This document shows positions 1 to 12,964 of a stretch of 12,964 nucleotides of DNA, piece after piece. Numbering within the stretch: the stretch's first letter is position 1; every line of letters starts with the position of its first letter. The position numbers and the translations under genes were made by a program. The stretch spans positions 1 to 12,964 of the forward strand of contig JAZDJU010000113.1 of NCBI GenBank assembly GCA_043803685.1, read 5' to 3'. The notes beneath the pieces were generated by a model. That model was not told the origin of the DNA and ran no database searches. It was given only the letters and a program-made list of their open reading frames with translations. This DNA comes from Candidatus Omnitrophota bacterium. Lineage in GTDB: Bacteria; Omnitrophota; Omnitrophia; Omnitrophales; Aquincolibacteriaceae.

Positions 1-73
1 CTTTCCCTTGCTGGATCTCGACCTCTCGTAATTTAAGAATGATCTCCTCGGGTTGAAGCCTTTTTCTCGCCAT
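1..73 (-). CDS. IS3-family transposase OrfA, N-terminal fragment (partial)
   Basis: Manual translation MARKRLQPEEIILKLREVEIQQGK resembles the typical IS3 OrfA N-terminus (RKR..PEEII.KLRE.E). Confidence 0.85.
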   Translation of the reverse strand, partial: MARKRLQPEEIILKLREVEIQQGK

Positions 74-140
74 CTTTTTGCCCCTTTCTGTTGCCAGAAG
101 TCTATCACAACAACTGGCTCAGTTTTCGGGGGCTAGGTCA
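1..140 (-). mobile_element. IS3-family (IS407-group-like) insertion sequence, left end; continues beyond the window
   Basis: The - strand from 140 reads TGACCTAGCCCCCGAAAACTGAGCCA, matching the TG...CCCC pattern of IS3/IS407-group terminal IRs, followed by SD GAAAGGGG (88-81) and an OrfA-type start at 73. Confidence 0.85.
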
Positions 141-588: not shown

Positions 589-642
589 CCTCCCGACCAC
601 CGTCTCTCTTCTTAGGGAAGTTTCGAGACGGTGGTCGGGAGG
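589..642. other. Candidate origin of transfer (oriT): perfect 18-bp inverted repeat with MOBC-like nic motif
   Basis: CCTCCCGACCACCGTCTC (589-606) pairs with GAGACGGTGGTCGGGAGG (625-642). The arms contain GGTGGTCGGG, similar to the CloDF13 nic GGGTG/GTCGGG as I recall it, and the site lies ~0.8 kb upstream of a MOBC-type relaxase. Confidence 0.6.
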
Positions 643-781
643 TAAAGGTTCGGGAAGGACTTGGATTTGCGGTTGGAGCGGATGGATTTCAGTGGTTGTT
701 GGTTGTTTGGAAGTGTTGTTTTTGAAGTTTGTGTTCTGGGTCGGGAAAGATTTGGTTTGGGATTTAAAGCGTTGTTCTTTG

Positions 782-859
782 GGACTAGAAAAATATTTTC
801 TATTGGGGGAATGTGCAAAAGTGACCGACAGACCCCCCTGTTTTTGCCCAATACTATAG
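782..859 (+). repeat. Direct repeat copy 1 (78 bp); putative activator-dependent promoter of the mobilization operon
   Basis: 782-800 = 8232-8250 (19/19) and 810-859 = 8260-8309 (50/50), 72/78 overall. Contains -10-like TACTAT (852-857) with a poor -35 (CAGACC). Confidence 0.9.
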
Positions 860-932
860 AGAGAAAATTAAAGTGACAAGCCCAGACAATCAACCTGGGA
901 CGATTCCAAGAACCTAGACTGGAGATAAAACC

Positions 933-1349
933 ATGAAACTGCTTGAAACGAGTGAGCCTCGCGGAAGTGGAAAGTCGTTTGTGGGTGTTTTGAAAGGTGT
1001 GTTTGTGGAGTTTGCGTGCTGGATCAGGAAGGGACTGAGTCTTGGGGTGATGCTTTTTCTGGCGTTCACCACTCTTTCTTTTCTGAACCGGGGTGCAGGG
1101 TATCTGGAAGCTTCTTTGGCAAAGACTGAGGTTAGGAAACAGTCCGAAGCGGCCGTGCCGTCGTTCTCGCGGGGAAATGTGAACGTGAGACAGGCATTTG
1201 TCGGTCAGGTGTCGGGGCGTGTTTACCGGCCAGCGGTTATTCCGGAAGCCTACAGTCCGAAAAATACCCGGGATACGCTCAGGGAGTCGGGATATCTGGT
1301 GAACGAACTGGAGTCGTTTGCCAGGACACTTGCGCGTTTCGGACGGTAA
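933..1349 (+). CDS. Hypothetical single-pass membrane protein (138 aa)
   Basis: SD GGAG before ATG; hydrophobic segment GLSLGVMLFLAFTTLSFL; first gene after repeat copy 1. Confidence 0.7.
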   Translation: MKLLETSEPRGSGKSFVGVLKGVFVEFACWIRKGLSLGVMLFLAFTTLSFLNRGAGYLEASLAKTEVRKQSEAAVPSFSRGNVNVRQAFVGQVSGRVYRPAVIPEAYSPKNTRDTLRESGYLVNELESFARTLARFGR

Positions 1350-1353
1350 CGGG

Positions 1354-1428
1354 TCTTCCGGCGTCTGAAGGGGTGATGGTCCTGCGTGTAGCGGGATCAT
1401 GCTCCTTCGGACGGAATATCCCGGAAGG
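1354..1428 (+). promoter_or_regulatory. Long G-U-rich hairpin upstream of the relaxase gene
   Basis: 1362-1385 pairs with 1391-1413 (23 bp, 5 G-U, one bulge, loop GTGTA). Outer CTTCCGG (1355-1361) pairs with CCGGAAG (1421-1427). No U-tract follows. Confidence 0.6.
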
Positions 1429-1444
1429 AACAGTAAAGGGATGA

Positions 1445-2206
1445 ATGAGCATGGAAGATATCACAAAAAACGAAACAGAACAGGGGAAGGCGTCGGAACG
1501 GGCTGCGGGTGCGGAACTGGTGGAACTTCAGGCAAGAGATATTGCGATGTTCCGGTTCATGAACGAGCAGGGGTATTTGGCGCACAGTCACCTCAAGTCC
1601 GCATTTTGGCAGACTTGTTCGGAAGAAGCCGGGGCGTGTCATCACCGGCTTGATAAGCTGGTCGCGGCGGGATATCTGGCCAAAGAGACCGGCGTGAAGA
1701 AAAAACTTTCGGTATATCGTTTGAGAGAAAAAGGGTTCGGCGAACTTCTGCGGCGAGGGTTGCGGAACGGCACGTCTCTTTTTAAATTGAACGGTTATCA
1801 CCGGACGAATATGGATCATGACCTGAAAGTAACGAACCTCCGAATCTTTTTCCGGAGGCACGGTCTTGACGGATGGACGAGTGAACGCGTTTTGAGACAG
1901 CGGGATTACTACCTCCATGTTCCGGACGGGCTTTTAACGGTGTATGAGGAAAGGATCGCGATCGAGCTTGAGAATTCGACGAAGGGACGAAAGCGTTACG
2001 AGGCGCTTTTCAAAAACTACGAGGCGTCGAAGGAGTACAGCCGCGTCTTCATGGTCCTGAATACCGAGATCATGGATTGGGTCATTGATCTTGAATACGA
2101 TCCGGCGAAGATCTGGTTTGTGGAGTATAAGACCCTTTTTCGGGAAGGTGAGAAGGCCATTTTCAGGAACAAAGCGGATACCTTCATCCTCTCCCAGATC
2201 CTATGA
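1445..2206 (+). CDS. Replication-relaxation (Replic_Relax / MOBC-type) relaxase
   Basis: N-terminal wHTH-like region (LQARDIAMF...RLDKLVAAGYL), HDLKV motif, and PD-(D/E)xK-like core VPDGLL...IAIELENSTK..KRY; directly upstream of a coupling protein. The start could be ATG 1451. Confidence 0.85.
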   Translation: MSMEDITKNETEQGKASERAAGAELVELQARDIAMFRFMNEQGYLAHSHLKSAFWQTCSEEAGACHHRLDKLVAAGYLAKETGVKKKLSVYRLREKGFGELLRRGLRNGTSLFKLNGYHRTNMDHDLKVTNLRIFFRRHGLDGWTSERVLRQRDYYLHVPDGLLTVYEERIAIELENSTKGRKRYEALFKNYEASKEYSRVFMVLNTEIMDWVIDLEYDPAKIWFVEYKTLFREGEKAIFRNKADTFILSQIL

Positions 2207-2212
2207 CGTTTC

Positions 2213-4201
2213 ATGGGAAAACCTGAAGGGGACTCGAGACAATCGCTTCTGGTGAAAGTCGTGACCGGGATCTTGATCAATATCCCGCTTACGGTCGCGG
2301 GTCTATTGCTCAAGTGGAGGAACTCTCCCGCGGGGAAAAACGTTCGTGCGTTCGTTCAAAAAAGTTTCGGGAGGATGAAGGAATTTTCCCCTTGGCGGAT
2401 CGTTTGTCTGATCGCAGGAACGGTGATTCTGATAGCGGGGCTCGCGGTCTTGGCGTGGGTGTTCTACAGGGCGGGAAATGTCCCGGAAGTTCGAAAGCCG
2501 CTTTCCGTTCGGTGGATCGTTTTAAAGGGGGCGCTCTACTACCTCTTTTATCTGGCGGCCCTGATGCCTTTTTTCCTGCCGGTGGCTTATTTTGCCTCTG
2601 CGGAGAAAGAACGGTTTTTAAAAGACGCCGGGAAAAAGCGGGAGCCAGAGCTTCTCGTGATGCGAAGAAACCGCCTGAGTTCGGACAAGTCGCGGTCCTA
2701 TCTCGGCGAGAGTTTGAGCGGCGGGGAGGCGGTTTATCTCACCTGCGAACAGCGCTCAATGCATGCCGAGGTTGTGGGCTCGACCGGGACCGGAAAAAGC
2801 GAGTCCGTTCTTTTGCCGCTCTTGGCGCATGACATCAGAAACGGAAGAGGGGCGATCGTGATCGACGGAAAAGGCGACCGCGAGCTTCTGGACCGGATCC
2901 ATTCCATTGTTGTTCGGGCGGATCGTCTCGAGGATTTTTACTTCTTCTCGCTCGCGAAACCTGATAAGTGCAACAGCTACAACCCGCTTCTAAGGGGGAA
3001 CGCTACGGAACTGAAAGACAAGATCATCGGAAGCATGATCTGGAACGAGGAGTTCTACCGGAAGATGGCGGAGCAGGCCATGCTGACGCTTTTAAAAGCT
3101 TTAAAGGAGCGTCCCTGCGAGAAAGGCTCGGACAAGCCTCCCACGATCCTGTTTAGTGAGGTTTACCGGTGTCTGACGGATTTTAAGGCGCTCCAAGAGC
3201 TCGCCAACGCGACTGTGGATCCCGAGACCAAAGGGGACCTCGGGAAAATGCTGGGCCGGTTCGATCAAAACCATAAGTTCCTCTCCGGGCTTATCGCGGA
3301 CCTTTACCTGACGTCCCGCAGCGAATTCTCAAAGCTCGTGGATACTCCTACGCCTGAGATCGATCTTCTAAAAATCTACAAAGGAAACAAGATCGTATAT
3401 TTCCAGCTCAATTTGCAGGGGTACGGAGAAACGGCAAAGCGCATGGGCCGTATGATCTTGCAGGATATCAGGACTGTTTCGGGTTATATCCAGTCCGATA
3501 TGTTGACTTCCGAGCGGCACTTTTTCCCGGTGTTCGTGGACGATGCGTCGAGCTTTCTTGACATCAATTTCATTGATTTCCTGAACAAGGCCCGCGCCGC
3601 AGGGTTCGGGATCATGTTGCTTCACCAGTCGCTCGGGGACCTCGTTGTGCGGCGCGACCCCTCGTTCCAACAACAAGTGATCGAAAATACCAATATCAAG
3701 ATCATTCTGAGGCAGGATGACCCCGATTCCGTGGAGAAACTCACGAAGATCGGAGGGACGAAGAAGACGTTGATCTCCACTTATCAAACGGAGCAGAAAT
3801 TCACCGGCAAGGATTTTACAGGGGTCGGCTCGATCCGCGAGGGGCAGGAATTCCGCATTGAACCGGACCTGATCCGGGGGCTCAAGAGAGGAGAGGCTGT
3901 TGTGATCCTCAAGAGCCCGGAGCTTTACACGGGGCACGTGAAGCTGGATTTCTTCGGGCATCCGTCGTATGTGGGGGATTTTAGGGCCCAGCATCCGCTT
4001 GTTGAGACTGCCGCAAAAAAGGAAGAACCTCCCGCAGCATTGCCGGCGGCGAAGCCTGAGGAAAATACCTCCCATGCTGTTGTGCCAGTCAGCGGCGGAA
4101 CCGAGACACCCCCGGCGACTAAAGAAAAGGAAACCAGAAAAGATCCCACAGGATGGATCAAAACCATGCAGCAGGAGAAAACAGGCGTAAAGTTACCGTA
4201 A
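2213..4201 (+). CDS. virD4: Type IV coupling protein (VirD4/TraD family)
   Basis: N-terminal TM segments; Walker A GSTGTGKS; IVIDGKGD; YNPL; Walker B FVDDAS; KARAAG, HQSLGDL and ENTNIKIILRQDD motifs; Pro/Ala/Glu-rich C-terminal tail. Confidence 0.92.
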   Translation: MGKPEGDSRQSLLVKVVTGILINIPLTVAGLLLKWRNSPAGKNVRAFVQKSFGRMKEFSPWRIVCLIAGTVILIAGLAVLAWVFYRAGNVPEVRKPLSVRWIVLKGALYYLFYLAALMPFFLPVAYFASAEKERFLKDAGKKREPELLVMRRNRLSSDKSRSYLGESLSGGEAVYLTCEQRSMHAEVVGSTGTGKSESVLLPLLAHDIRNGRGAIVIDGKGDRELLDRIHSIVVRADRLEDFYFFSLAKPDKCNSYNPLLRGNATELKDKIIGSMIWNEEFYRKMAEQAMLTLLKALKERPCEKGSDKPPTILFSEVYRCLTDFKALQELANATVDPETKGDLGKMLGRFDQNHKFLSGLIADLYLTSRSEFSKLVDTPTPEIDLLKIYKGNKIVYFQLNLQGYGETAKRMGRMILQDIRTVSGYIQSDMLTSERHFFPVFVDDASSFLDINFIDFLNKARAAGFGIMLLHQSLGDLVVRRDPSFQQQVIENTNIKIILRQDDPDSVEKLTKIGGTKKTLISTYQTEQKFTGKDFTGVGSIREGQEFRIEPDLIRGLKRGEAVVILKSPELYTGHVKLDFFGHPSYVGDFRAQHPLVETAAKKEEPPAALPAAKPEENTSHAVVPVSGGTETPPATKEKETRKDPTGWIKTMQQEKTGVKLP

Positions 4202-4226
4202 ACTGAATTCAGGATTTTAAAACAAT

Positions 4227-4267
4227 GGGGAAGGTCCGGGGCATGGCTCCGGGTCTTCCCCTTTTTT
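4227..4267 (+). terminator. Intrinsic terminator after the coupling protein gene
   Basis: GGGGAAGGTCCGGGGC-atg-GCTCCGGGTCTTCCCC (16 bp with G-U pairs) followed by TTTTTT. Confidence 0.8.
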
Positions 4268-4357
4268 ATTTTTCAGGGCTTTCAAAAAGGAGGTGATGGA
4301 AGAGAGAGGAGCGTTTTTCACGAAGTTCATTTCAAAACCAAAAAGGAGAAAAACAAC

Positions 4358-4858
4358 ATGGAAACTCAAAATACAGCTCAAGACGCGGAACAAGAGATCG
4401 TGGTCCTCGCGGATATTCCGAGATCCAAGAATGACATCTACCGGATCTCGCAAAAGAACTACAAGGGGAACCGTTACCTCGATCTCCGGATCTTTTTCCG
4501 GGCCAAGGACGGCAAGGCCATGTTTTTGCCGAGCGGAAAAGGCGTGTGTTTCGCGGAGAAATTCCGCGAAGCCATTATCGCGGGGCTCATCAAGGCAAGG
4601 ACGGCCCCTCAGGCCGTAAGGACCGAGGGCGTGAGTGTCGCAAGCGTCACGGTTTGCGATATTCCGGCTTCAGAAACCGAGATCTTCCGGATCTCCAAAG
4701 GATGCGGGCAAAGGGCCACGTTCGTGGATATTCGGAAGTTCTATAGCAAGGACGGCACGTATTTCCCGTCCAAGCGAAAGGGAGTCTCGATCCCGGAGTC
4801 CGTGCTGGAAGACGTGATCCTGGGGCTCATGCCCTCCAGCCCGGCGCGCGCCGTGTAA
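4358..4858 (+). CDS. Protein with two tandem PC4/YdbC-like ssDNA-binding domains (166 aa)
   Basis: SD AAAGGAG. Internal repeat DIPRSKNDIYRISQKNYKGNRYLDLRIFF...PSGKGVCF / DIPASETEIFRISKGCGQRATFVDIRKFY...PSKRKGVSI; both halves show the PC4 pattern (Y/F)(L/V)D(L/I)R..(F/Y)...P..KG(V/I). Confidence 0.85.
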   Translation: METQNTAQDAEQEIVVLADIPRSKNDIYRISQKNYKGNRYLDLRIFFRAKDGKAMFLPSGKGVCFAEKFREAIIAGLIKARTAPQAVRTEGVSVASVTVCDIPASETEIFRISKGCGQRATFVDIRKFYSKDGTYFPSKRKGVSIPESVLEDVILGLMPSSPARAV

Positions 4859-4887
4859 GGGGATGACGGATTCAAAAAAATCCAAAA

Positions 4888-4926
4888 GGGGAGACGGTGC
4901 TTAAACGTGCTGTCTCCCTATTTATT
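4888..4926 (+). terminator. Intergenic terminator-like hairpin
   Basis: GGGGAGACGGTGC-ttaaac-GTGCTGTCTCCCT (13 bp with G-U pairs), followed by an AT-rich tract. Confidence 0.55.
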
Positions 4927-4944
4927 TGAAAGGAGGTGAATCCC

Positions 4945-5037
4945 ATGAGGTTGATCGTTCGGAGAAGTGATTTTGAGAAACACGCCGACGTAATCGGCCG
5001 GTTCCAGAAAAACGGCTGGGAGATCGTGGTTCGCTGA
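4945..5037 (+). CDS. 30-aa small protein, below the ORF track cutoff
   Basis: Full SD AAGGAGGTGA, then atccc-ATG; translates as MRLIVRRSDFEKHADVIGRFQKNGWEIVVR*. Confidence 0.65.
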   Translation: MRLIVRRSDFEKHADVIGRFQKNGWEIVVR

Positions 5038-5066
5038 AACGAAAGAAACAAATAAACCAAACGCAA

Positions 5067-5107
5067 AAAAGAGGCGGTATTCCCGTCAAAGGGAGTCCGC
5101 CTCTTTT
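5067..5107 (+). terminator. Intergenic hairpin, bidirectional-terminator-like
   Basis: AAAAGAGGCGG-t-ATTCCC-gtcaaa-GGGAGT-CCGCCTCTTTT. Confidence 0.6.
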
Positions 5108-5132
5108 CGCGTCTAAAAAGGAGGGTGCCACC

Positions 5133-5795
5133 ATGAGACGAAAACTATCGGTTCGAGATTGGCCGGAGACCGAACGGCCTGCGGTAAGAGCGGTTGAGAA
5201 AGGGATCGAAGCATTGTCTGATGCGGAGCTTCTATCCCTCATCCTCAAGAAATGCACCTACGAGCAAACGGAAGTGGGTGTTGCTTTGGATCTTTTGAAT
5301 AAAGCCGGAGGCCTCCGGCAGCTCTTTGATCTCAGGGATGTGCCTGAATATCAGAGGGTTACGCTTCAGGCCGTGAGGGAGATCGGGCGGCGTGTCTTGA
5401 AACAGGGGGTGATCGGGCAAAACTTCGTCCGAAGTCCCCAAGCGGTCACCGATTACCTCACGGCCAGTCTCCGGGACCTTAAGCGAGAGGTCTTTAAGGT
5501 GATCTTTCTCGACAAGGGTTTAAGGATCCTGGGGGAAAAAGACATGTTCTTCGGGACGATCGATGAGGCGGCGGTGCATCCCCGGGAGATTGTCCGCGAA
5601 GCGATTTTTCAAAACGCGGTGAGCCTCGTGTTGGTCCATAACCACCCTTCGGGAAAAGTCGAGCCGAGCCGCGAGGATTACGAGATCACGCAGAAGATCA
5701 AGGCCGCCTGCCAGACGGTTTCGATCCGGATCCTCGATCACATCATCATCGGAGAGAACCAGTACTTCAGTTTCTCGGAACGAAATCAACTTTAA
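5133..5795 (+). CDS. radC: RadC family JAB/MPN-domain protein
   Basis: N-terminus VRDWPETERP...ALSDAELLSLIL; E.F.VIFLD; GTIDEAAVHPREIV; JAB motif HNHPSG...PSREDY...LDHIIIG; SD AAGGAGG. Confidence 0.95.
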   Translation: MRRKLSVRDWPETERPAVRAVEKGIEALSDAELLSLILKKCTYEQTEVGVALDLLNKAGGLRQLFDLRDVPEYQRVTLQAVREIGRRVLKQGVIGQNFVRSPQAVTDYLTASLRDLKREVFKVIFLDKGLRILGEKDMFFGTIDEAAVHPREIVREAIFQNAVSLVLVHNHPSGKVEPSREDYEITQKIKAACQTVSIRILDHIIIGENQYFSFSERNQL

Positions 5796-5809
5796 GAAAG
5801 GAGTCTGCT

Positions 5810-5977
5810 ATGACGCGCAAGGAATTATTAAAGGGACTGTTCCTTCAAATTCAGAACCTTCGAGAACGTATCTCCGTCGCGGATGAGGAATGCCCAGCGG
5901 GTGAGGATGAAAGCGAACTTCATCGTCTTGAAGAAAGGCTCGAGATGCTGACCGACGGGATGTGTGGCAGAAGATGA
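5810..5977 (+). CDS. 55-aa hypothetical helical-hairpin protein, not in the ORF track
   Basis: SD AAAGGAG just after the radC stop; MTRKELLKGLFLQIQNLRERISVADEECPAGEDESELHRLEERLEMLTDGMCGRR*. Confidence 0.7.
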   Translation: MTRKELLKGLFLQIQNLRERISVADEECPAGEDESELHRLEERLEMLTDGMCGRR

Positions 5978-5983
5978 CGAGTT

Positions 5984-6012
5984 GGGAGGCGGGGATTTTA
6001 TTCCCGCCTCCC
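5984..6012 (+). other. Intergenic GC-rich hairpin
   Basis: GGGAGGCGGGGAT-ttt-ATTCCCGCCTCCC (13 bp, one G-U); no U-tract. Confidence 0.6.
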
Positions 6013-6055
6013 GTGATTCCACTTGAACGAAATAAAAAACAGAAAGGGAAGGGTT

Positions 6056-6661
6056 ATGAACCTTAAGGAATGGATGAAACAATTTGAAGGGCAATTTGAT
6101 GACAGGGCGCTTGGCTATATGACCGTTCACAAAGCGAATATCGTTGCACAATTACAGGATTCGGAGACGCGGGAGATCCACCTGCACCAGCTGGAATATA
6201 AGGCAAAGAATGCTTATGACCTGCGTGTCGAAGGGACCAAAAGCTCCAGGGGAAAAAACGTCATGCGGGATGGGGGAGAAACCATTCGCGATTTTTTCAA
6301 GGATGTCGAGATGATCTTTGAATATTCGAGAAAACAGGCGCTTGAGGACGGAGTTCTTGTTGACATGTCTGCGGCCGCGAGGGAAGCGGGTATCCGTTAT
6401 CCGGTAGCCGTCACCCAGGCAGTGTTCACCATTTTGAACGATACCAGGGTTTCCGGCCAGGATCTGAGCGGTCGAACGTGGGATATGCTTATGATCTTCA
6501 GAACGCATATTCGTGCGGCTTCGGGGGATGAGATCCATTTCGCGCCGCTATTTTTAATGGAGGACGGCGCTAAACCCGAGCCTGTTCCGATGTGGGCGAA
6601 ATGCGGGCCGGGTGATACGGCAGATCCCGTGATCACCATCCTGCTGGAAAACCAAGATTGA
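6056..6661 (+). CDS. DUF6573-like mobile-element protein with an N-terminal extension
   Basis: Start moved to ATG 6056 (purine-rich SD). The C-terminal ~125 aa carry YSRKQALEDGVLVD..AREAG..PVAVT..GQD..GR.WD.L..CGPGD..PVITILL, a pattern I recall as DUF6573. Confidence 0.75.
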   Translation: MNLKEWMKQFEGQFDDRALGYMTVHKANIVAQLQDSETREIHLHQLEYKAKNAYDLRVEGTKSSRGKNVMRDGGETIRDFFKDVEMIFEYSRKQALEDGVLVDMSAAAREAGIRYPVAVTQAVFTILNDTRVSGQDLSGRTWDMLMIFRTHIRAASGDEIHFAPLFLMEDGAKPEPVPMWAKCGPGDTADPVITILLENQD

Positions 6662-6677
6662 AAGGAGAGATAAACCC

Positions 6678-7016
6678 ATGATCCATGCGTTCTTAAAAGA
6701 AGAACTGAAAGCGATGCTTCGGTTTCACAAGCGGGTTTTGCTTGCGATCCTGAAGGCGTTGGGTGCGTGTCTCCGTTACGGGTTATGGCTTCTACCGTGG
6801 ATCTTTTTCGCGGCCACCGTGTGGAAGCCTTTGGCCTCAGGCTGGGAAGTTCTTACCCGAGATCCTCCCTCGTCCCAGGCGATGCCGTTTTATCCGTTGT
6901 TTTATGGGGGCATGGCGGAGTCCAAAAAATCCATGGACCTGGAAACGATCCAAAACAAGATCGATTCCGGCATGAGGACTGTCGAAAGGATATCAAGACA
7001 GCTAAAGCAGAAGTAA
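6678..7016 (+). CDS. Hypothetical single-pass membrane protein (112 aa)
   Basis: SD AAAGGAG; hydrophobic segment YGLWLLPWIFFAATVW; followed by a terminator. Confidence 0.75.
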   Translation: MIHAFLKEELKAMLRFHKRVLLAILKALGACLRYGLWLLPWIFFAATVWKPLASGWEVLTRDPPSSQAMPFYPLFYGGMAESKKSMDLETIQNKIDSGMRTVERISRQLKQK

Positions 7017-7035
7017 GTAACAGTGATCGAAAAAC

Positions 7036-7076
7036 GGCGGGGGAGATACGTCTCTCCCGCCTGTTCAAATTTTTTT
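7036..7076 (+). terminator. Terminator-like hairpin ending the accessory block
   Basis: GGCGGGGGAGA-tacg-TCTCTCCCGCC (11 bp, one G-U), followed by a T-rich tract. Confidence 0.65.
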
Positions 7077-7104
7077 CTGTGTTTTATGACCATCTATCGA
7101 CTTC

Positions 7105-7133
7105 TTGACATTATAGGACGTATTGGGTAGCAT
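7105..7133 (+). promoter_or_regulatory. Putative sigma70 promoter
   Basis: Perfect TTGACA (7105-7110), 17-nt spacer, TAGCAT (7128-7133); sits right after a terminator and points to the HTH gene. Confidence 0.65.
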
Positions 7134-7572
7134 ATGTCTCGCTTATCCAGGTTCGAATAAGAGCGAATCAAGCTCACGAATGGGATTTTTTTAAAGCCGG
7201 ATCCTTTGGGATCGGGCCGTTTTGGAAATAGAAGACCTCAACCCAAGAAGGTCTCGTTTCCGCGGCTTGGCTGCCTGAATGAGCGGGAAGCATCGTCTTC
7301 CTCAATTGCTCGCCCGAGACCGCTTGAAGGTCCTGCTGCGTCACATAACTGTTTCAGACAAACCACAGAGCGGAGTTTTGTGTAAACTCCTTTGAGGATC
7401 TCCGGTGAATCTGGAACCACCATTATGCCGTGTGGTTCCGGGTTCGGATACGGCAGCGCGGAGGATCCCTTTCCTTTAGCATCTCTCTCTTTCTCCAGGT
7501 CTGGTTTCACGAGCACCCCTCTTTTCCTCATAATCTTCTCCCAGGAAATTTTTTTGTTTTTTTAGTCTTACG

Positions 7573-7606
7573 AAGCGGGTAACCCTCCGGGCTGCTCGCT
7601 TTTTTT
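7573..7606 (+). terminator. Terminator/attenuator-like hairpin upstream of the HTH gene
   Basis: AAGCGGGTAACCC-tcc-GGGCTGCTCGCTT running into a 7-T tract (7600-7606). Confidence 0.6.
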
Positions 7607-7651
7607 GTGTCCTCGCTTTGGTTCCGCATAGCGGAAAGCGGGGACACAACA

Positions 7652-8254
7652 GTGTTAAATTCAAAATCCGGGGACGAAGCACCGGATGTTTCAGGATCCA
7701 GTCATAAGCGAAGGACAAGAGTACGGGAGATCGATTTTTCGAGGGTGGAAGGAACGCGGCCCGAAGACCCCCTCCATCCTTTCGAGTTGGAGGTGCGGGA
7801 GAAATTGGCCGGTCCGGCGGGTTCTTCCGATGATCTTGCCGCGAAAGAGCACCGGGTTCTTGGGCGCAGAAAAATAACGGCAACCCATGCCCGGTTGGTC
7901 CGTCTTTCCCGGGAAGGGATGCTTACGGAAAGACAGCAAACCTATTTCGATCTCTTTTACGTCGACGGTCGTTCGGACAAAGAGATCGCCTCGCGTCTTG
8001 GCGTTTCCCGGAGCACGGTCCGCGATTTCCGTCAGGAAATTCATCGGAGGATGCGGCACTTTATTCTAGAGAAAGAATCCGTCCGGCGCATGCTTCGATC
8101 CGTGAAATCGGCGGGGTTAACGAAAAAACAGAAGCAAATTTTCAGGCTCCGGTACCGGAAAGGGCTCTCGGTGGCTCAAATTGCGCGGGTTCTCGGAAGG
8201 CGTCCTCGCGCCATTTATGCGCTTCTCGAACGGACTAGAAAAATATTTTCCTGA
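7652..8254 (+). CDS. Putative transcriptional regulator with two sigma-70 region-4-like HTH domains
   Basis: LTERQQTYFDLFYVDGRSDKEIASRLGVSRSTVR and LTKKQKQIFRLRYRKGLSVAQIARVLGRRPRAIY both fit the sigma4/LuxR-type pattern. Start placed at GTG 7652 (SD-like GCGGGGA), uncertain; the ORF is open from 7607. Confidence 0.8.
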   Translation: MLNSKSGDEAPDVSGSSHKRRTRVREIDFSRVEGTRPEDPLHPFELEVREKLAGPAGSSDDLAAKEHRVLGRRKITATHARLVRLSREGMLTERQQTYFDLFYVDGRSDKEIASRLGVSRSTVRDFRQEIHRRMRHFILEKESVRRMLRSVKSAGLTKKQKQIFRLRYRKGLSVAQIARVLGRRPRAIYALLERTRKIFS

Positions 8255-8309
8255 GGAGAAATGTGCAAAAGTGACCGACAGACCCCCCTGTTTTTGCCCA
8301 ATACTATAG
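8232..8309 (+). repeat. Direct repeat copy 2 (78 bp); putative activator-dependent promoter of the T4SS operon
   Basis: 72/78 identical to 782-859; overlaps the last codons of the HTH gene; TACTAT at 8302-8307. Confidence 0.9.
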
Positions 8310-8401
8310 GGGGAAGTGAGGCCGACCCGTCAAAACAGGATCGAGGCAATGCCTCCCAAAGGGGTCCCAGAGCCTCCTTCCCCTCAACCATGGAGGAAGC
8401 G

Positions 8402-8713
8402 ATGAAAGGTCGATTTTTAAAACTGCGGCGTGTTCTTGTGGGAGTCGGATTCCTGCTCATCCAGACCCGGCTTTGTTACGCGGAAGCGGGTTCTGAGGCA
8501 GATCTCCAGTCATTTCTTCAGCAGATCGGGGATTTCATGATCCGCTCGATCGGTCCGGGAGTTTGCGTGATCGGGGTCGCCATTGCCGGTGTGTCCATGG
8601 CGCTGGGCGATGAACAGGGAATGCGCCGGGGAGCGCTTGCCGCGGGAGGCGGGGCTCTCATCATGCTTTCGAGGGCGATCCTCGATTTAATCCAGAACGC
8701 AGCTCATTTCTAG
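8402..8713 (+). CDS. virB2: VirB2/TrbC-like pilin (103 aa)
   Basis: SD GGAGG before ATG 8402; signal peptide ending LCYA; two Gly-rich hydrophobic helices; lies before virB3/virB4. Confidence 0.8.
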   Translation: MKGRFLKLRRVLVGVGFLLIQTRLCYAEAGSEADLQSFLQQIGDFMIRSIGPGVCVIGVAIAGVSMALGDEQGMRRGALAAGGGALIMLSRAILDLIQNAAHF

Positions 8714-8723
8714 GGAGATATCG

Positions 8724-9011
8724 ATGAAACATCTTAAGGTTTACCGAAAGATTCACGAGCGAAATAAGATCCTGGGGCTTGAATTCCCGGATCTGCTCGT
8801 TTTGGTTCTGCTCTATCTCGGAGTGTTCCTTTTCTCGAAAAACCTGCTCCTGAATCTCTTTGTGGTCGGCGTTGCCTATTTCGTTCTTCGTCTCTATAAA
8901 AAGGGGAAGCCCTCGCACTGGACCGCGAGCGTCTTCCGTTTTCTTTTCAAAACCCGCTACTACGGTCAAAAACGGGAACACCCGAGGGAGCTGGATCATG
9001 AAGAGCGCTAA
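8724..9011 (+). CDS. virB3: VirB3-like inner membrane protein (95 aa)
   Basis: VYRKI...KILGLE..DL then two TM helices; between pilin and VirB4, overlapping the virB4 start. Confidence 0.75.
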   Translation: MKHLKVYRKIHERNKILGLEFPDLLVLVLLYLGVFLFSKNLLLNLFVVGVAYFVLRLYKKGKPSHWTASVFRFLFKTRYYGQKREHPRELDHEER

Positions 9012-11517
9012 CCTTCTCCGGATACGGGACCTCCTCCACTCTGAATCCCGGATCCCTTTTTACAAACAAGCGGATCTTTACTCGATCGAGGACGATATTT
9101 TGATCGGGGTGACCGGGACGATCGGCTGCGGTTTCAGGGTGCCGGGTCGCGACCTGCTCCTCGAAAGCGACGGAGCGATCGAGCATTTCGAGAGCCGTGC
9201 CCGGAAACTCTGGAACTCGCTTCCGACGGGAACCTCGCTTCATTTCATCGTTAAATCCGAGGAAGGGGATGAAGAGGCTCTGAGGTCGTTTGAGGAATCT
9301 CTTGCCGGTCAGGGGGATTTCGCTCGAAAGATCGCTCATGCGAAAGCGGCTTCTTACCGGGAGCGTCCCTTTCTCAGGCGTCAGGTGTTTCTTTTTATCG
9401 TGGTTCGTCCCGCCGCAAAACGAAATCCCCGGTCTTTCTTACCGGATCTTTTCTCGGTGTTCGGCAAAAAATCCAGACTATCCGCGCGGTCGGATTACGA
9501 GACTTCGAAGAAAGAGCTTCAGAGCCTATCCGCCCGGATCCTGGCCGGATTTTCCGATATCGGGTTCCGTCTGGAGAAAATCAGGGAGCAGGAGCTTCTC
9601 CGTTATCTTTACGAGCTTTTAAATCCCGCGTATTCAAAAGAGATCGTGCCGTTTGATAAGAGCGGGATCGTCGAAAAAGGGGAGTGGCGCGGGGAGGAGA
9701 CGCTCCGCTCCCGGCTGCTGCTTACTCCTCCCGTCGTCGAGGACCGTTTCTTTTACCTGGACCGTTATTTCCACGAAATCCTGAATCTTCGGCTGCTCCC
9801 GGATCACACCCATCTGAAAGCCATGCGAGATTTTGAGCGCGCGCTCGGCCGCAATTACTTTATTTCCATCACGCTCGAAGTCCCGGATCAGGATCGTGAG
9901 CGTGCTTCTTTGAAAAGACAGGGGAATTTCGCGAAGGCCCAGGAGTTTTTCGCGAGAACGCGGGACCATGAGGCGGGGGCCCGGGCCGTTGAATCGGACG
10001 CGCTTTTGACGGAGCTCGCGCAAACCGGGGACAAGCTCCTGAAATGTTCCATGGCGGTCATGCTCCGCGAAAAAACACGGCGTGATCTCGAGAAACGCGC
10101 TGAGGAAATACTTCGCGTGTTCCCGCGTCTTGGGGACGCTCAAGGCATCCGCGATCACATGAACCATGACCGTTTGTTTTTATCGTTCCTGCCGCTTCAG
10201 GGGCATGAGAATCCTCTCATGTTTCTCGTGCGCTCCGAGGTGCTGACCCATCTCTTGCCCTTTCAGGCGAGCTGGCGCGGGACGGAGAAGACCGGACTTC
10301 TTCTTAAAACCTGGCGGGATGAACCGCTCAAGCTTGATCTCTTCGATGACCGTCTTCAAGCCAAACACGCGTTCATGCTTGGAACGACCGGCTCCGGGAA
10401 ATCTTTTTTCACGACCCATCTTCTGCTTCATTTCTTTATCGCGTCCAAAACCCACGAAGTGATCGTGATCGATGTCGGCGGCAGTTACCGGAAACTCGCG
10501 CATCTCCTGGGAGGGTCGTATCTCGAGGTGGAATGCTCGGAGGCGTACGCGCTGAATCCTTTCCCGAGGAAGAAGGCGCTTTTCCCCGAAGGCGGGGACC
10601 CGGACGCGACTTTCCTTCAGTTTTTGAAGGAGCTGCTCCAGAAAATGATCGGCCCGGAACGGAAATGGACGGCCAGTGAAAAGATGATCCTGGAACGCGC
10701 CATTCGCGAAGTTTACGACGCGATTCCCCAGGACCGGGCTCCTCTTCTCGGAGACGTCGAAAAAGCGCTTTTCCATTTCAAGGAAGGGGATGAGGACGAC
10801 AAGCGTAAAGCGTATCAATTCGCGAAGGAGCTTTGCCTTTTCACGAAAGGCGAATACGGAAGACTTCTCAACCGGGAGGGCGTCTTCGATTTTGATTCGC
10901 GGTTCACGGTCTTCGATCTCCGGAAGATCTCCCAGTATCCCGAGCTTCAGGAAATTCTCCTTTATATTATCCCGTTCGCGTTAAAGAGAAAATTCGAGAA
11001 CATCGCGATCAAGAAAATGCTTGTCCTGGATGAATGCTGGAGACTTCTCAAGGAATCCCAGGGGAGCGATCTGGTCGAGGTGTTCTATCGCACGGCCCGG
11101 AAGATGAACGCCGGAGTCCTTTCCATCTCCCAGAACCCCGAAGATTTTCTTGAAGCGAAGATCGCGAATGTCATCATCAATAACTCTCCTGTGAAATACC
11201 TGCTCAGGCTTCATAAAGGGCATGACCAGCTCGCGCGGTTCGGTCTAAATCCCAACGAGATCCAGGCTGTCCGGGAGCTTGAGGTCAGGCCCGGTCATTA
11301 TTCCGAGGTCTTTATCAAGTTCGACGAGCAGCCCGTGATCGTGAAGCTTGAACCAACGGCTCTTGAGTATTGGATCGCGACGACGGACCCCGTGGATCTG
11401 GCTGAAGAATCAAAGCAAATGCGCCAGGGCGCCGGAGGGCTGCTTGAGACTTTGGAAGGGCTCGCCCTCGAATTTCCGCATGGCGTCAAGAAAAGCGGGG
11501 AGGTGATCCGTGCGTAA
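8998..11517 (+). CDS. virB4: VirB4/TraC-family T4SS ATPase (839 aa)
   Basis: Start ATG 8998 with SD GAGGGAG; Walker A GTTGSGKS; VIVIDVGGSY; LNPF; Walker B LVLDECW; TARKMNAG...SQNPEDF. Confidence 0.95.
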   Translation: MKSANLLRIRDLLHSESRIPFYKQADLYSIEDDILIGVTGTIGCGFRVPGRDLLLESDGAIEHFESRARKLWNSLPTGTSLHFIVKSEEGDEEALRSFEESLAGQGDFARKIAHAKAASYRERPFLRRQVFLFIVVRPAAKRNPRSFLPDLFSVFGKKSRLSARSDYETSKKELQSLSARILAGFSDIGFRLEKIREQELLRYLYELLNPAYSKEIVPFDKSGIVEKGEWRGEETLRSRLLLTPPVVEDRFFYLDRYFHEILNLRLLPDHTHLKAMRDFERALGRNYFISITLEVPDQDRERASLKRQGNFAKAQEFFARTRDHEAGARAVESDALLTELAQTGDKLLKCSMAVMLREKTRRDLEKRAEEILRVFPRLGDAQGIRDHMNHDRLFLSFLPLQGHENPLMFLVRSEVLTHLLPFQASWRGTEKTGLLLKTWRDEPLKLDLFDDRLQAKHAFMLGTTGSGKSFFTTHLLLHFFIASKTHEVIVIDVGGSYRKLAHLLGGSYLEVECSEAYALNPFPRKKALFPEGGDPDATFLQFLKELLQKMIGPERKWTASEKMILERAIREVYDAIPQDRAPLLGDVEKALFHFKEGDEDDKRKAYQFAKELCLFTKGEYGRLLNREGVFDFDSRFTVFDLRKISQYPELQEILLYIIPFALKRKFENIAIKKMLVLDECWRLLKESQGSDLVEVFYRTARKMNAGVLSISQNPEDFLEAKIANVIINNSPVKYLLRLHKGHDQLARFGLNPNEIQAVRELEVRPGHYSEVFIKFDEQPVIVKLEPTALEYWIATTDPVDLAEESKQMRQGAGGLLETLEGLALEFPHGVKKSGEVIRA

Positions 11518-12964
11518 TCACCCTGCGACTCGAAAAACGCGAGTGCTTCTCATCCTGCTTCTGGTCCTGCTGGTCGGGGCAGGACATGCGGCGTACGCCA
11601 CCATGCCGACTTTTGACGCAGTGAACGCGGCCTTGAATGAAATTCGGAACGCGGTCATGCAGTCCCAGTTCGCCCAGGATATTGTGATCGCGATGGACCA
11701 GCTCGATCGGCTGAAAGAGCAATACCAGGAGCTTCTGCGGTTCAATTCCGGGATCGACAGCGTCCTCAAAGTATTCGTTGGGGATTCTTACCGGAACCTT
11801 TTCCGATTCGGGAATACCGGTCTCCGTGACGCTTTCGGCGATTTCGGGGGGATCACACCGAGCATTGAATTTCTGGAGCAGGCAGCAAGCCCCCAAGACA
11901 TCCGGACGTCTCTGGAGGCGATCACGGGCGCGATTCCGGAGTCGAGTGAACGCCCTTACATTCCCTTTGAAGAGATGCAGGTGGTCGAGGGATTTCAGTT
12001 CGCACAGGAGATCCGGAAAGCGGGGGACGAAACCCGGAACGCAGCCCAGTCGATTTCCGAACAGGCGCAGGACGCGAGTCCCAAAGGGGCCGCCCGGCTC
12101 GGGAATGAGGCGCTGTCGCGGATGATGGTCCTCTCGCAGCAGAATCAGGAGGTTTTGGCGAAGATACTTGAACTTCAGGCGGTCCAGGTCGAACAGGTCT
12201 CCCGTGAAGAAAAACGCCTGGAATCGGAGCGTTTGAAATATCTGGAAGATGCGGGGGCGTATCTCTCCGGTCTCGAGGAGACAAGAATAACCATGCTTCC
12301 TCAAGGATTTCTCTTTACCAATACGCTTCAGATCCCCGATCTTTTCAGTGGCCCTTTCGCGATCACCTTCCACTTGGGATTTGTGATCTATTCCCTGATG
12401 CTCATCGCGGCCATTCTCCACGAAAACCTTCAGGCGTTTCGCGGGAAATCCGATTACTTGGGACTTTTCCTGAGAGCGCTGGCGGTGACCGCGCTTCTTG
12501 TGATCTATGACCGTTTTTTTAACTGGATCGTTTATGGAATGGACCTTCTCTCCAAGTCCGTGCTTCCTGAAAATGAGTTTCGGGAGGTTATTCGGGCCGT
12601 ATTTCAGGATATCGGCGGCAAGCGTGATTTCGGGGTCCTGAAATTCCTTTCCATTATCACGACGCTGAATTTCATCACCTACGCCGTGGCCCTGGCGCTT
12701 TTGGGCGTTCTCACGTGGCTTCGTTTTGTTTTTCTTTCGCTCCTTTACGTGCTCGGGCCGATCCTGATCGGGTTCGGAATCTATAAAGCGACAGCGGATG
12801 GACTGCTCTTTTGGCTGAGAAGTCTTGTCGCGGTTTCTTCCTGGACCGTCGTTCTTTCCATTCTCATGAAAGTGATCTCCACGATGAATCTGACGGCCGT
12901 GTATTTGCCGCAGGAAGCCAATAGCGCCTCAGTCCTGGCGGCCAACCTGCTTTTCATCATTCTC
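11510..12964 (+). CDS. VirB5/TrbJ-like domain in frame with a VirB6/TrbL-like polytopic membrane domain (3'-partial)
   Basis: GTG 11510 with SD GGAGGTG; manual translation shows no stop in 485 codons to the window end. Signal peptide, then MPTFDAVN and a Gln/Glu-rich coiled coil; from ATG 12293, multiple TM helices including LLYVLGPILIGFGIY...FWLRSLVAVSSW. Confidence 0.8.
   Translation, partial: MRNHPATRKTRVLLILLLVLLVGAGHAAYATMPTFDAVNAALNEIRNAVMQSQFAQDIVIAMDQLDRLKEQYQELLRFNSGIDSVLKVFVGDSYRNLFRFGNTGLRDAFGDFGGITPSIEFLEQAASPQDIRTSLEAITGAIPESSERPYIPFEEMQVVEGFQFAQEIRKAGDETRNAAQSISEQAQDASPKGAARLGNEALSRMMVLSQQNQEVLAKILELQAVQVEQVSREEKRLESERLKYLEDAGAYLSGLEETRITMLPQGFLFTNTLQIPDLFSGPFAITFHLGFVIYSLMLIAAILHENLQAFRGKSDYLGLFLRALAVTALLVIYDRFFNWIVYGMDLLSKSVLPENEFREVIRAVFQDIGGKRDFGVLKFLSIITTLNFITYAVALALLGVLTWLRFVFLSLLYVLGPILIGFGIYKATADGLLFWLRSLVAVSSWTVVLSILMKVISTMNLTAVYLPQEANSASVLAANLLFIIL

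Follow-up and report, generated by a model that had tools for sequence, protein, structure and literature searches.

The window analysed here is the whole of contig C113 (12,964 nt), from a Candidatus Omnitrophota genome bin of 2.89 Mb in 133 contigs that is 91% complete with 6.6% contamination. At positions 589-642 it contains a perfect inverted repeat (IR) that is probably the site at which the origin of transfer (oriT) of a MOBC-type conjugative element is nicked, the predicted enzyme being a relaxase homologue encoded 802 nt downstream. MOBC is the least understood relaxase family, and few of its oriTs have been mapped. The features of the repeat region are as follows.

564-587: small flanking hairpin with two T-R-T-A-C-A boxes (564-569 and 582-587), found in the single-stranded DNA fold and abutting the main IR
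589-606: left arm of the IR, relaxase-distal, CCTCCCGACCACCGTCTC, pairing with 625-642
607-624, plus strand: IR loop of 18 nt, non-palindromic, TCTTCTTAGGGAAGTTTC
625-642: right arm of the IR, relaxase-proximal, GAGACGGTGGTCGGGAGG, pairing with 589-606
592-602, minus strand: nic-like motif CGGTG/GTCGGG with a predicted nick at 598/597; the CloDF13-equivalent site, in the distal arm and opposite the relaxase coding strand
629-639, plus strand: the same nic-like motif, which may be nicked at 633/634, less likely so by CloDF13 geometry

The perfect 18-bp IR reported at 589-642 by the first-pass annotation is confirmed by repeat search, shuffling and folding. A repeat search of the whole window finds two 18-nt arms (589-606/625-642) that are 100% complementary and separated by an 18-nt loop; no other IR in the window exceeds 16 nt with its arms no more than 80 nt apart. 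The longest perfect IR (loop of 3-60 nt) in 30 mononucleotide shuffles of the window was 8-13 nt, against the 18 nt observed. As single-stranded DNA either strand is predicted to fold into a hairpin (-24.5 and -25.1 kcal/mol; z of -7.5 and -8.2), the stability of which was matched by none of 200 shuffles.

Each arm, read on its own strand, carries CGGTGGTCGGG, which agrees at 10 of 11 positions with the CloDF13 nic GGGTG/GTCGGG; a motif scan thus bears out the match that had been claimed for both arms. The nic sequence given in the first-pass annotation proves correct at second hand: the available part of PMC5935869, quoting Nunez & de la Cruz 2001, places the CloDF13 nic in 5'-GGGTG/GTCGGG-3', and the exact 11-mer occurs once in the CloDF13 record NC_002119, at 9752-9762 on the plus strand. 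With up to one mismatch, GGGTGGTCGGG has three sites in the window (592-602 on the minus strand, 629-639 and 5407-5417 on the plus strand), compared with 0.28 expected from shuffles, and three sites were reached in none of 200 shuffles.

Conservation and distribution of the repeat

The oriT proposal had been made dependent on the IR recurring beside relaxase homologues, and it does recur there, with a relaxase match directly downstream at 43 of 63 sites. Alignment A1 comprises the window and 16 relaxase-adjacent loci from 15 other genomes (17 sequences). In this alignment the 18 IR pairs are paired in 94.1% of 304 cells, compared with 82.8% after column shuffling and 31-41% in slid registers. 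Both sides have changed together, in a compensatory manner, in 12 of the 18 pairs (36 cells), and because G-U type wobble is confined to 1 of the 304 cells, the symmetry holds for both strands. The arms vary among clades with complementarity kept, and the spacer ranges from 17 to 31 nt in relatives in which the arms are retained. Arm type tracks relaxase clade, which may be mere shared descent.

The right-arm core reads G-T-R-G-T-C-G, in which every position except R is invariant or conserved in 16 of the 17 sequences; R, the variable base, immediately precedes the predicted cut. Core variants in the alignment include CGTGGTCGAG, CGTAGTCGAA, CGAGGTCGGG and CGTGGTCAGG, and the core is kept next to relaxases of only 24-29% identity, as GAGTGGTCGG, GAGTAGTCGGG, GTAGTGGTTGGG and CGAGGTCAGG.

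The candidate oriT had been described as symmetric, which is true of the arms (a perfect IR with the core on both strands) and does not extend to the whole element, the loop and flanks of which are oriented. A pyrimidine tract, ..CTCTC.TC.TA, which runs from the end of the left arm into the loop (about 603-614), has one fixed orientation relative to the relaxase gene; the invariant alignment columns of this segment are window positions 604, 606-608, 611 and 613. At the corresponding place left of the IR, relatives have a pair of ..TAC. boxes with a spacing of about 18 nt, and CTCGG.A.G is the only box conserved just right of the IR, within the direct-repeat region of the window; neither kind of box changes its orientation with respect to the relaxase gene. 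The TAC boxes at 564-587 are candidate protein-binding boxes. A covariance model (R1) built from the IR and its immediate flanks, with 17 relaxase-linked sites as training, scores the window site at 69.4 bits in the forward orientation versus 32.0 bits in reverse.

In the genome from which the window comes, the model finds four sites (C113, C131, C77 and C31), all upstream of relaxase matches; there are five relaxase matches in this genome, and the IR of the fifth (C39) is cut by the contig end. Of 61 related genomes, 30 have a relaxase homologue, frequently more than one; 29 have an IR site and 27 have both. The 61-genome run, made with stricter filters and with site contexts tallied by hand comparison of two tables, gave 63 distinct sites:

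43 of 63: relaxase match directly downstream on the same strand (17 training sites and 26 new ones)
11 of 63: fetched DNA in which a profile search (E up to 1) finds no relaxase; part of the downstream DNA is masked at two of the 11
5 of 63: at contig ends
4 of 63: context not examined

In nearly all fetched loci with enough upstream DNA, an IR precedes the relaxase start at a distance of 630-800 nt. Many of the 26 new sites are only 16-100 nt upstream of relaxase paralogues (24-30% identical), and no small open reading frame (ORF) intervenes; therefore at deep divergence the constant partner of the IR is the relaxase gene and not the 138-amino-acid (aa) ORF that separates the two in the window. 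A degenerate pattern for the commonest IR type leads to the same gene in public contigs: 6 of 10 are titled as Candidatus Omnitrophota/Omnitrophica metagenome-assembled genomes and 4 of 10 as 'uncultured bacterium', and a relaxase homologue lies about 750 nt downstream in 8 of the 8 that have enough DNA. With the single relaxase as query, no relative was found in the genome-contig collection. Contigs from two other DNA runs, belonging to different studies, share the block 548-675 with the window at 89-97% likeness and diverge left of 548, which is consistent with a conserved module. The sequencing-run contigs list no joints or pile-ups (shares of at most 0.19), a negative that applies to contigs, in which read ends are invisible.

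Contig C39 (L034) of the same bin holds a second transfer cluster, collinear with window positions 600-11424 at 84-87% DNA identity. The insert between RadC and the sigma-like gene differs, window 5932-7024 (the DUF6573 gene and a 112-aa ORF) being replaced by about 6.9 kb. C39 and C113 may represent two elements of a single genome or, given the contamination of 6.6%, two strains binned together. C39 ends inside the IR; the 43 nt of IR and loop left on it match the window exactly. The stretch that follows is about 88% identical, with an indel within the next 130 nt, and has an extra repeat unit of about 117 nt.

Some contigs have more than one copy. Two equally oriented IR copies are separated by 10 kb on G021:C20 and by 57 kb on G048:C48, and L058 (G017:C148) has two tandem IRs about 900 nt apart, with the downstream DNA masked (N). 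The second IR of L058 is the closest relative of the window IR, having arms CTCCTGACCACTGC / GCAGTGGTCAGGAG with compensatory changes and the loop TCTTCCTAGGGGAATTTC.

The relaxase candidate and known MOBC-type loci

The gene that would act on the IR is the following.

1445-2206, plus strand: relaxase candidate, a MobC/Replic_Relax homologue starting 802 nt downstream of the IR, with an N-terminal MarR-like winged helix and a C-terminal D161..E174-x-E176..K180..R184-Y185

The first-pass annotation assigned this protein to the PD-(D/E)xK MOBC/Replic_Relax type, an assignment that its MobC homology, its conserved signature and its predicted winged helix support. By sequence it appears to be a significant MobC homologue outside the curated subfamily. 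In an alignment (A2) of 18 relaxase homologues, P160-D161, E174, E176, R184 and Y185 do not vary, and the conservation of K180 is at least 90%. Comparison of this alignment with pCRY MobC by hhalign gives 95.4% probability (E 1.8e-8, 205 columns) and aligns PDG, ExE (ETE), K and RY. In TraX of pAD1, the series D ... ExE ... K ... RY is reportedly made up of PD-(D/E)xK-type catalytic residues.

The AlphaFold model of the protein has a mean pLDDT (predicted local distance difference test score) of 85.2, and residues of about 25-107 superpose on MarR-family structures with Z of 8.0-8.8 and root-mean-square deviations of 2.4-4.3 A over 75-85 aligned residues. A Foldseek search against the PDB gave no match at E up to 0.001; the only PD-(D/E)xK nuclease rows are weak (Cdn1, VC1899, SdaI, FokI and YaeQ, E 4e-3 to 4e-2). 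The alignment profile run against PDB sequences returned two winged-helix rows only, at E 0.2. For MOBC relaxases in general, the available parts of PMC6736028 and PMC12857230 describe a restriction-enzyme-like active site and report no covalent DNA intermediate.

One locus, L048, combines an IR of the commonest type (93.4 bits) with a relaxase homologue that is 28-30% identical to the usual partners; in it K-Y replaces R-Y, and ORFs of 137 and 392 aa of unknown family adjoin. L048 is possibly a case of module exchange or an element border.

The comparison with CloDF13 and other MOBC oriTs that the first-pass annotation suggested places the core inside IR arms in CloDF13, pCRY and pTEF1; IR arms with TGGTC(G/A)G next to a MOBC gene are an architecture common to these three and the window. 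A nic inside an IR has been mapped only for CloDF13 and pAD1, according to papers known at second hand. In CloDF13 the nic lies inside the right arm of an imperfect IR at 9680-9698/9746-9764 (19 nt, 84%, 47 nt between arms), and the large mob ORF is on the minus strand, below 9247. With nic on the plus strand and mob on the minus strand, the nicked strand is therefore opposite the mob coding strand, the nicked arm is the mob-distal one, and the mob genes would enter last. Window and CloDF13 are alike in having the core at the outer end of an IR arm with a near-copy in the other arm, a site upstream of the mob genes, an adjacent coupling protein gene (MobB in CloDF13), and a relaxase (MobC in CloDF13) of the same superfamily. 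In contrast to the imperfect IR of CloDF13 with 47 nt between its arms, the window IR is perfect with 18 nt between; the gene order is oriT-mobB-mobC in CloDF13 and oriT-orf138-relaxase-coupling protein in the window; and CloDF13 is only mobilisable, whereas the window element has secretion genes of its own. No DNA or pairwise protein similarity is detectable past the core, and the hosts belong to different phyla.

pTEF1 (pAD1-like, NC_004669) has a perfect 25-nt IR with 27 nt between the arms that carries AATGGTCAGG / AATGGTCAGGAA, so that pTEF1 and the oriT2 of pAD1 resemble the window in having a large perfect IR whose arms include ATGGTCAGG. An outer IR of 18 nt encloses the pTEF1 IR. Five direct repeats of 12 nt flank it on one side; on the other, downstream on the same strand, a small ORF is followed by a replication-relaxation gene, as in the window. 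The layout of the five repeats agrees with the TraX binding site in a review (PMC12857230), the available part of which states that TraX of pAD1 binds five direct repeats 70-120 bp from nic and consists of a winged helix and a restriction-endonuclease-like active site. This domain make-up fits the relaxase candidate of the window, and both elements have their own transfer machinery, as self-transmissible elements do. The window differs in having two diverged 34-nt repeats, which are not conserved, instead of five 12-nt ones; pTEF1 also differs in that its coupling protein gene is upstream of oriT and its transfer apparatus is of the Gram-positive kind.

pCRY has a 22-nt, 95% IR with GGTTGGTCGCG and a 55-nt spacer, upstream of mobB-mobC, the arms of which end in GGGGTTGGTCGCGC; a Vibrio MOBC plasmid has the same TTGGTCGCGCGTAGCGC as pCRY. 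Unlike the window, the pCRY-type core has TTGGTCGC, and pCRY/pMET1-type secretion is VirB-type (MPF_T), whereas the window has F-like TraC and TraL matches. As far as the available part of PMC2262945 goes, MobB and MobC of pCRY are 99% identical to those of pMET1, and pMET1 and HPI-ECOR31 have two nic sites, the site lying within an IR, so that either strand might transfer. The oriT (IR2) of HPI-ECOR31, ICEKp1 and pMET1 resembles the window in its nic-like core on both strands of the IR; two nic sites in one IR are thus not new, having been published for pMET1 and HPI-ECOR31.

In terms of annotation the find is ordinary: an oriT candidate in the expected place, in an ordinary kind of element from a little-studied phylum. 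A limited literature search on conjugative Omnitrophota found no description of MOBC elements or oriTs in this phylum. Its value lies in a compact oriT candidate of which nature supplies dozens of variants, with a covarying stem and a 7-base core that hardly changes. CloDF13 shares this core, and pAD1-like and pCRY-type sites have it in the shorter form TGGTC; the variants are ready substrates for studying how a MOBC enzyme picks its site and strand. Within Omnitrophota, the IR would mark self-transmissible elements and probable relaxase-less hitchers.

Proposed mechanism and alternative explanations

In the proposed mechanism, the relaxase would bind through its winged helix, perhaps aided by the product of the small membrane ORF or by the flanking TAC and CTCGG boxes, and would cut within G-T-G/G-T-C-G. 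By CloDF13 geometry, the cut would fall on the minus strand in the distal (left) arm, at 598/597, and the cut strand would enter the recipient 5' to 3', toward lower coordinates, with the transfer genes last. The IR hairpin in the transferred strand would serve both recognition and termination, and the IR copies that have a recombinase gene beside them and no relaxase would depend on mobilisation in trans.

That the loop and flanks are oriented speaks for a preference for one strand and makes equal use of the two unlikely. The plus-strand site at 633/634 is the mirror image of 598/597 and may be used. The two nicks are 36 bp apart, so a double nick alone would not break the duplex. A more elaborate scheme, in which a dimeric relaxase on the extruded or duplex palindrome cuts the G-T-G/G-T-C-G core in both arms, can be given only a small chance; either strand could then lead, or a doubly nicked intermediate would form, the near-absence of G-T wobble (1 of 304 cells) would mean that both hairpins are needed, and relaxase-less copies would let small islands hitch-hike in bacteria with very small genomes.

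Several observations weigh against an oriT cut by this relaxase. Family matches of the protein fall under the cut-offs: Pfam Replic_Relax (PF13814) at 23.3 bits (E 7.7e-5) against 25.3, and NCBIfam MobC_subf (NF041423) at 60.6 bits (E 1.3e-16, 181 residues) against 200; tblastn of the relaxase against the CloDF13 record gave nothing significant. The match between window and CloDF13 is one of a short core, and the third one-mismatch motif site, at 5407-5417 on the plus strand, is within the RadC gene and presumably due to chance. Run with E up to 1, the covariance model matches neither CloDF13 nor pCRY nor the Vibrio plasmid, which limits the likeness to architecture and core. The order oriT, 138-aa ORF, relaxase, coupling protein departs from the usual order of oriT, coupling protein and MOBC gene given in the accessible part of 10.1101/2024.01.30.577996; that order is not defining, as pTEF1 too has a small ORF and then the relaxase downstream of its IR. 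Direct repeats comparable to those at 647-771 were found in none of six relatives, so the parallel with the pAD1 TraX site is not conserved. Eleven IR sites have no relaxase nearby, and among non-training sites with enough DNA only about 7 in 10 are relaxase-linked. The relatives in alignment A1 are kin, so its counts overstate independence, and the covariation of the IR equally fits a palindromic binding site of any dimeric protein.

The last point leads to the alternative that the IR is the palindromic operator of a dimeric regulator, possibly the winged helix of the relaxase itself, for the small-ORF/relaxase operon, and that it has no part in starting transfer. This is rather improbable. 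The IR is intergenic and upstream of the operon, a sigma-70-like site at 544-571 (10 of 12) just upstream could make it promoter-proximal, the N-terminus of the relaxase is MarR-like, and strict Watson-Crick covariation is expected of a symmetric duplex site; the promoter scan, however, gave 2 sites compared with 1.1 in shuffles. The actual promoter or operator seems to be a separate box at 781-815 that the pilin operon also has. The centres of the two IR arms lie 36 bp from each other, and relatives keep the arms while the spacer varies over 17-31 nt; a variable spacer and 36-bp arm spacing are unlike typical MarR or LacI operators. Furthermore, loci with a broken small ORF and no relaxase downstream still have an intact IR, and the core of the IR equals a mapped nic sequence. 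Many oriTs double as operators, so an operator role would not exclude an oriT.

Some IR copies have recombinase genes as neighbours, but it is very unlikely that the IR serves these enzymes as a site-specific recombination site of the att, res or dif kind. This explanation draws on the 11 sites that have no relaxase, of which at least 9 have readable downstream DNA. At four (L056, L059, L060 and L062) a homologue of the small ORF is followed by a large serine recombinase gene, and at three (L063, L065 and L067) a tyrosine integrase-like gene follows; Pfam confirms the serine recombinase at L056 and L059 and the tyrosine recombinase at L065 and L067. Two unrelated recombinase classes beside one IR type make the IR unlikely to be the cognate site of either, and the window and 43 of the 63 sites have a relaxase and no adjacent recombinase. 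At L056, L059 and L060 the small ORF is interrupted and the IR is intact at 91.1-93.6 bits, which fits a cis site used in trans; the relaxase-less copies are candidate orphan oriTs of mobilisable islands.

Contig ends at the IR also count in favour of a recombination site: C39 and C77 (L026), both in the genome of the window, end inside it, and G011:C38 (L025) ends at its right edge. These ends are explained by near-identical IR copies, several in each genome, that fork the assembly graph, and probably mark forks at the most conserved segment shared by several elements and not biology. The possibility that two elements meet head to head at a common IR was rejected; the C39 loop has the same orientation relative to its own relaxase as that of the window.

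That the IR belongs to an origin of vegetative replication, in which the direct repeats would be iterons and the 'replication-relaxation' protein the initiator, is highly improbable: the word 'replication' in the Pfam and NCBIfam family names and the direct repeats beside the IR in the window and C39 would suit it, but the direct repeats are not conserved in six relatives, IR copies lie within chromosomal-looking contigs of 135-466 kb, neither an AT-rich unwinding block nor a Rep gene is seen in the window, and the gene context is that of a coupling protein and type IV secretion. Least probable of all is a hairpin that acts in RNA as a stabiliser of the 5' untranslated region, an attenuator or a terminator; the fold is strong and the upstream promoter-like site could transcribe it, but no T-run follows the hairpin on either strand, the terminator scan does not contain it, Rfam gave only two chance microRNA-hairpin matches far under threshold, both strands fold equally well, and an RNA stem would tolerate one-strand wobble, compared with the 1 G-U cell of 304 and 36 double changes found here.

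Neighbouring genes and flanking DNA

The remaining features of the window, in which the mating-pair formation genes start at 8261, are listed below.

647-771, plus strand: two diverged direct repeats, 647-680 and 738-771 (34 nt, 71% alike), starting GGTYCGGGAA
781-815, plus strand: box GGACTAGAAAAATATTTTC..GG.GAAATGTG, upstream of the small-ORF/relaxase operon; a second copy at 8232-8265 directly precedes the pilin start codon
933-1349, plus strand: ORF of 138 aa that matches no family and has a single hydrophobic stretch; closer relatives keep it between the IR and the relaxase
2213-4201, plus strand: type IV coupling protein, TraD/VirD4-like (Pfam, NCBIfam), directly after the relaxase gene
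4358-8254: accessory genes for PC4-like, RadC, DUF6573 and double sigma-70 region-4 proteins
8261-8713, plus strand: TrbC/VirB2 pilin (Pfam)
8724-9011, plus strand: TraL-like protein (Pfam)
8860-11517, plus strand: TraC/VirB4 ATPase (Pfam)
11510-12964, plus strand: VirB6-like protein (Pfam), running off the contig

The direct repeats at 647-771 appear to be lineage-specific; the C39 paralogue has three units versus two in the window. C39 has the box of 781-815 at both places too, and the box recurs in several metagenome contigs, RNA-library contigs included, whose flanks are unlike; it is likely that the transfer operons share it as a promoter or operator. One clade (L006-L012, L021, L026 and L027) conserves a short hairpin, CAGGGGAGAAGCA-GGCA-TGCTTCTCCCCTG, which follows the small ORF and precedes the start of the relaxase gene by about 50 nt.

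Left of the IR, window positions 1-140 have identical 140-nt copies at the ends of C82 and C33, the identity ending exactly at 140, and appear to be the end of a repeated element. A minus-strand ORF from 73 runs off the contig and may encode an IS3-family OrfA, which its first residues resemble. Positions 141-588 are unique within the genome, and a 55-aa CxxC..CxxC ORF of no family occupies 191-358. The upstream DNA of three related loci (L035, L036 and L037) differs from this arrangement of unique DNA with a 55-aa ORF preceded by a repeated element: all three have a LacI-family regulator gene upstream of the IR (Pfam-tested in L036 only), together with a cysteine-rich ORF of 131-133 aa that belongs to no known family.

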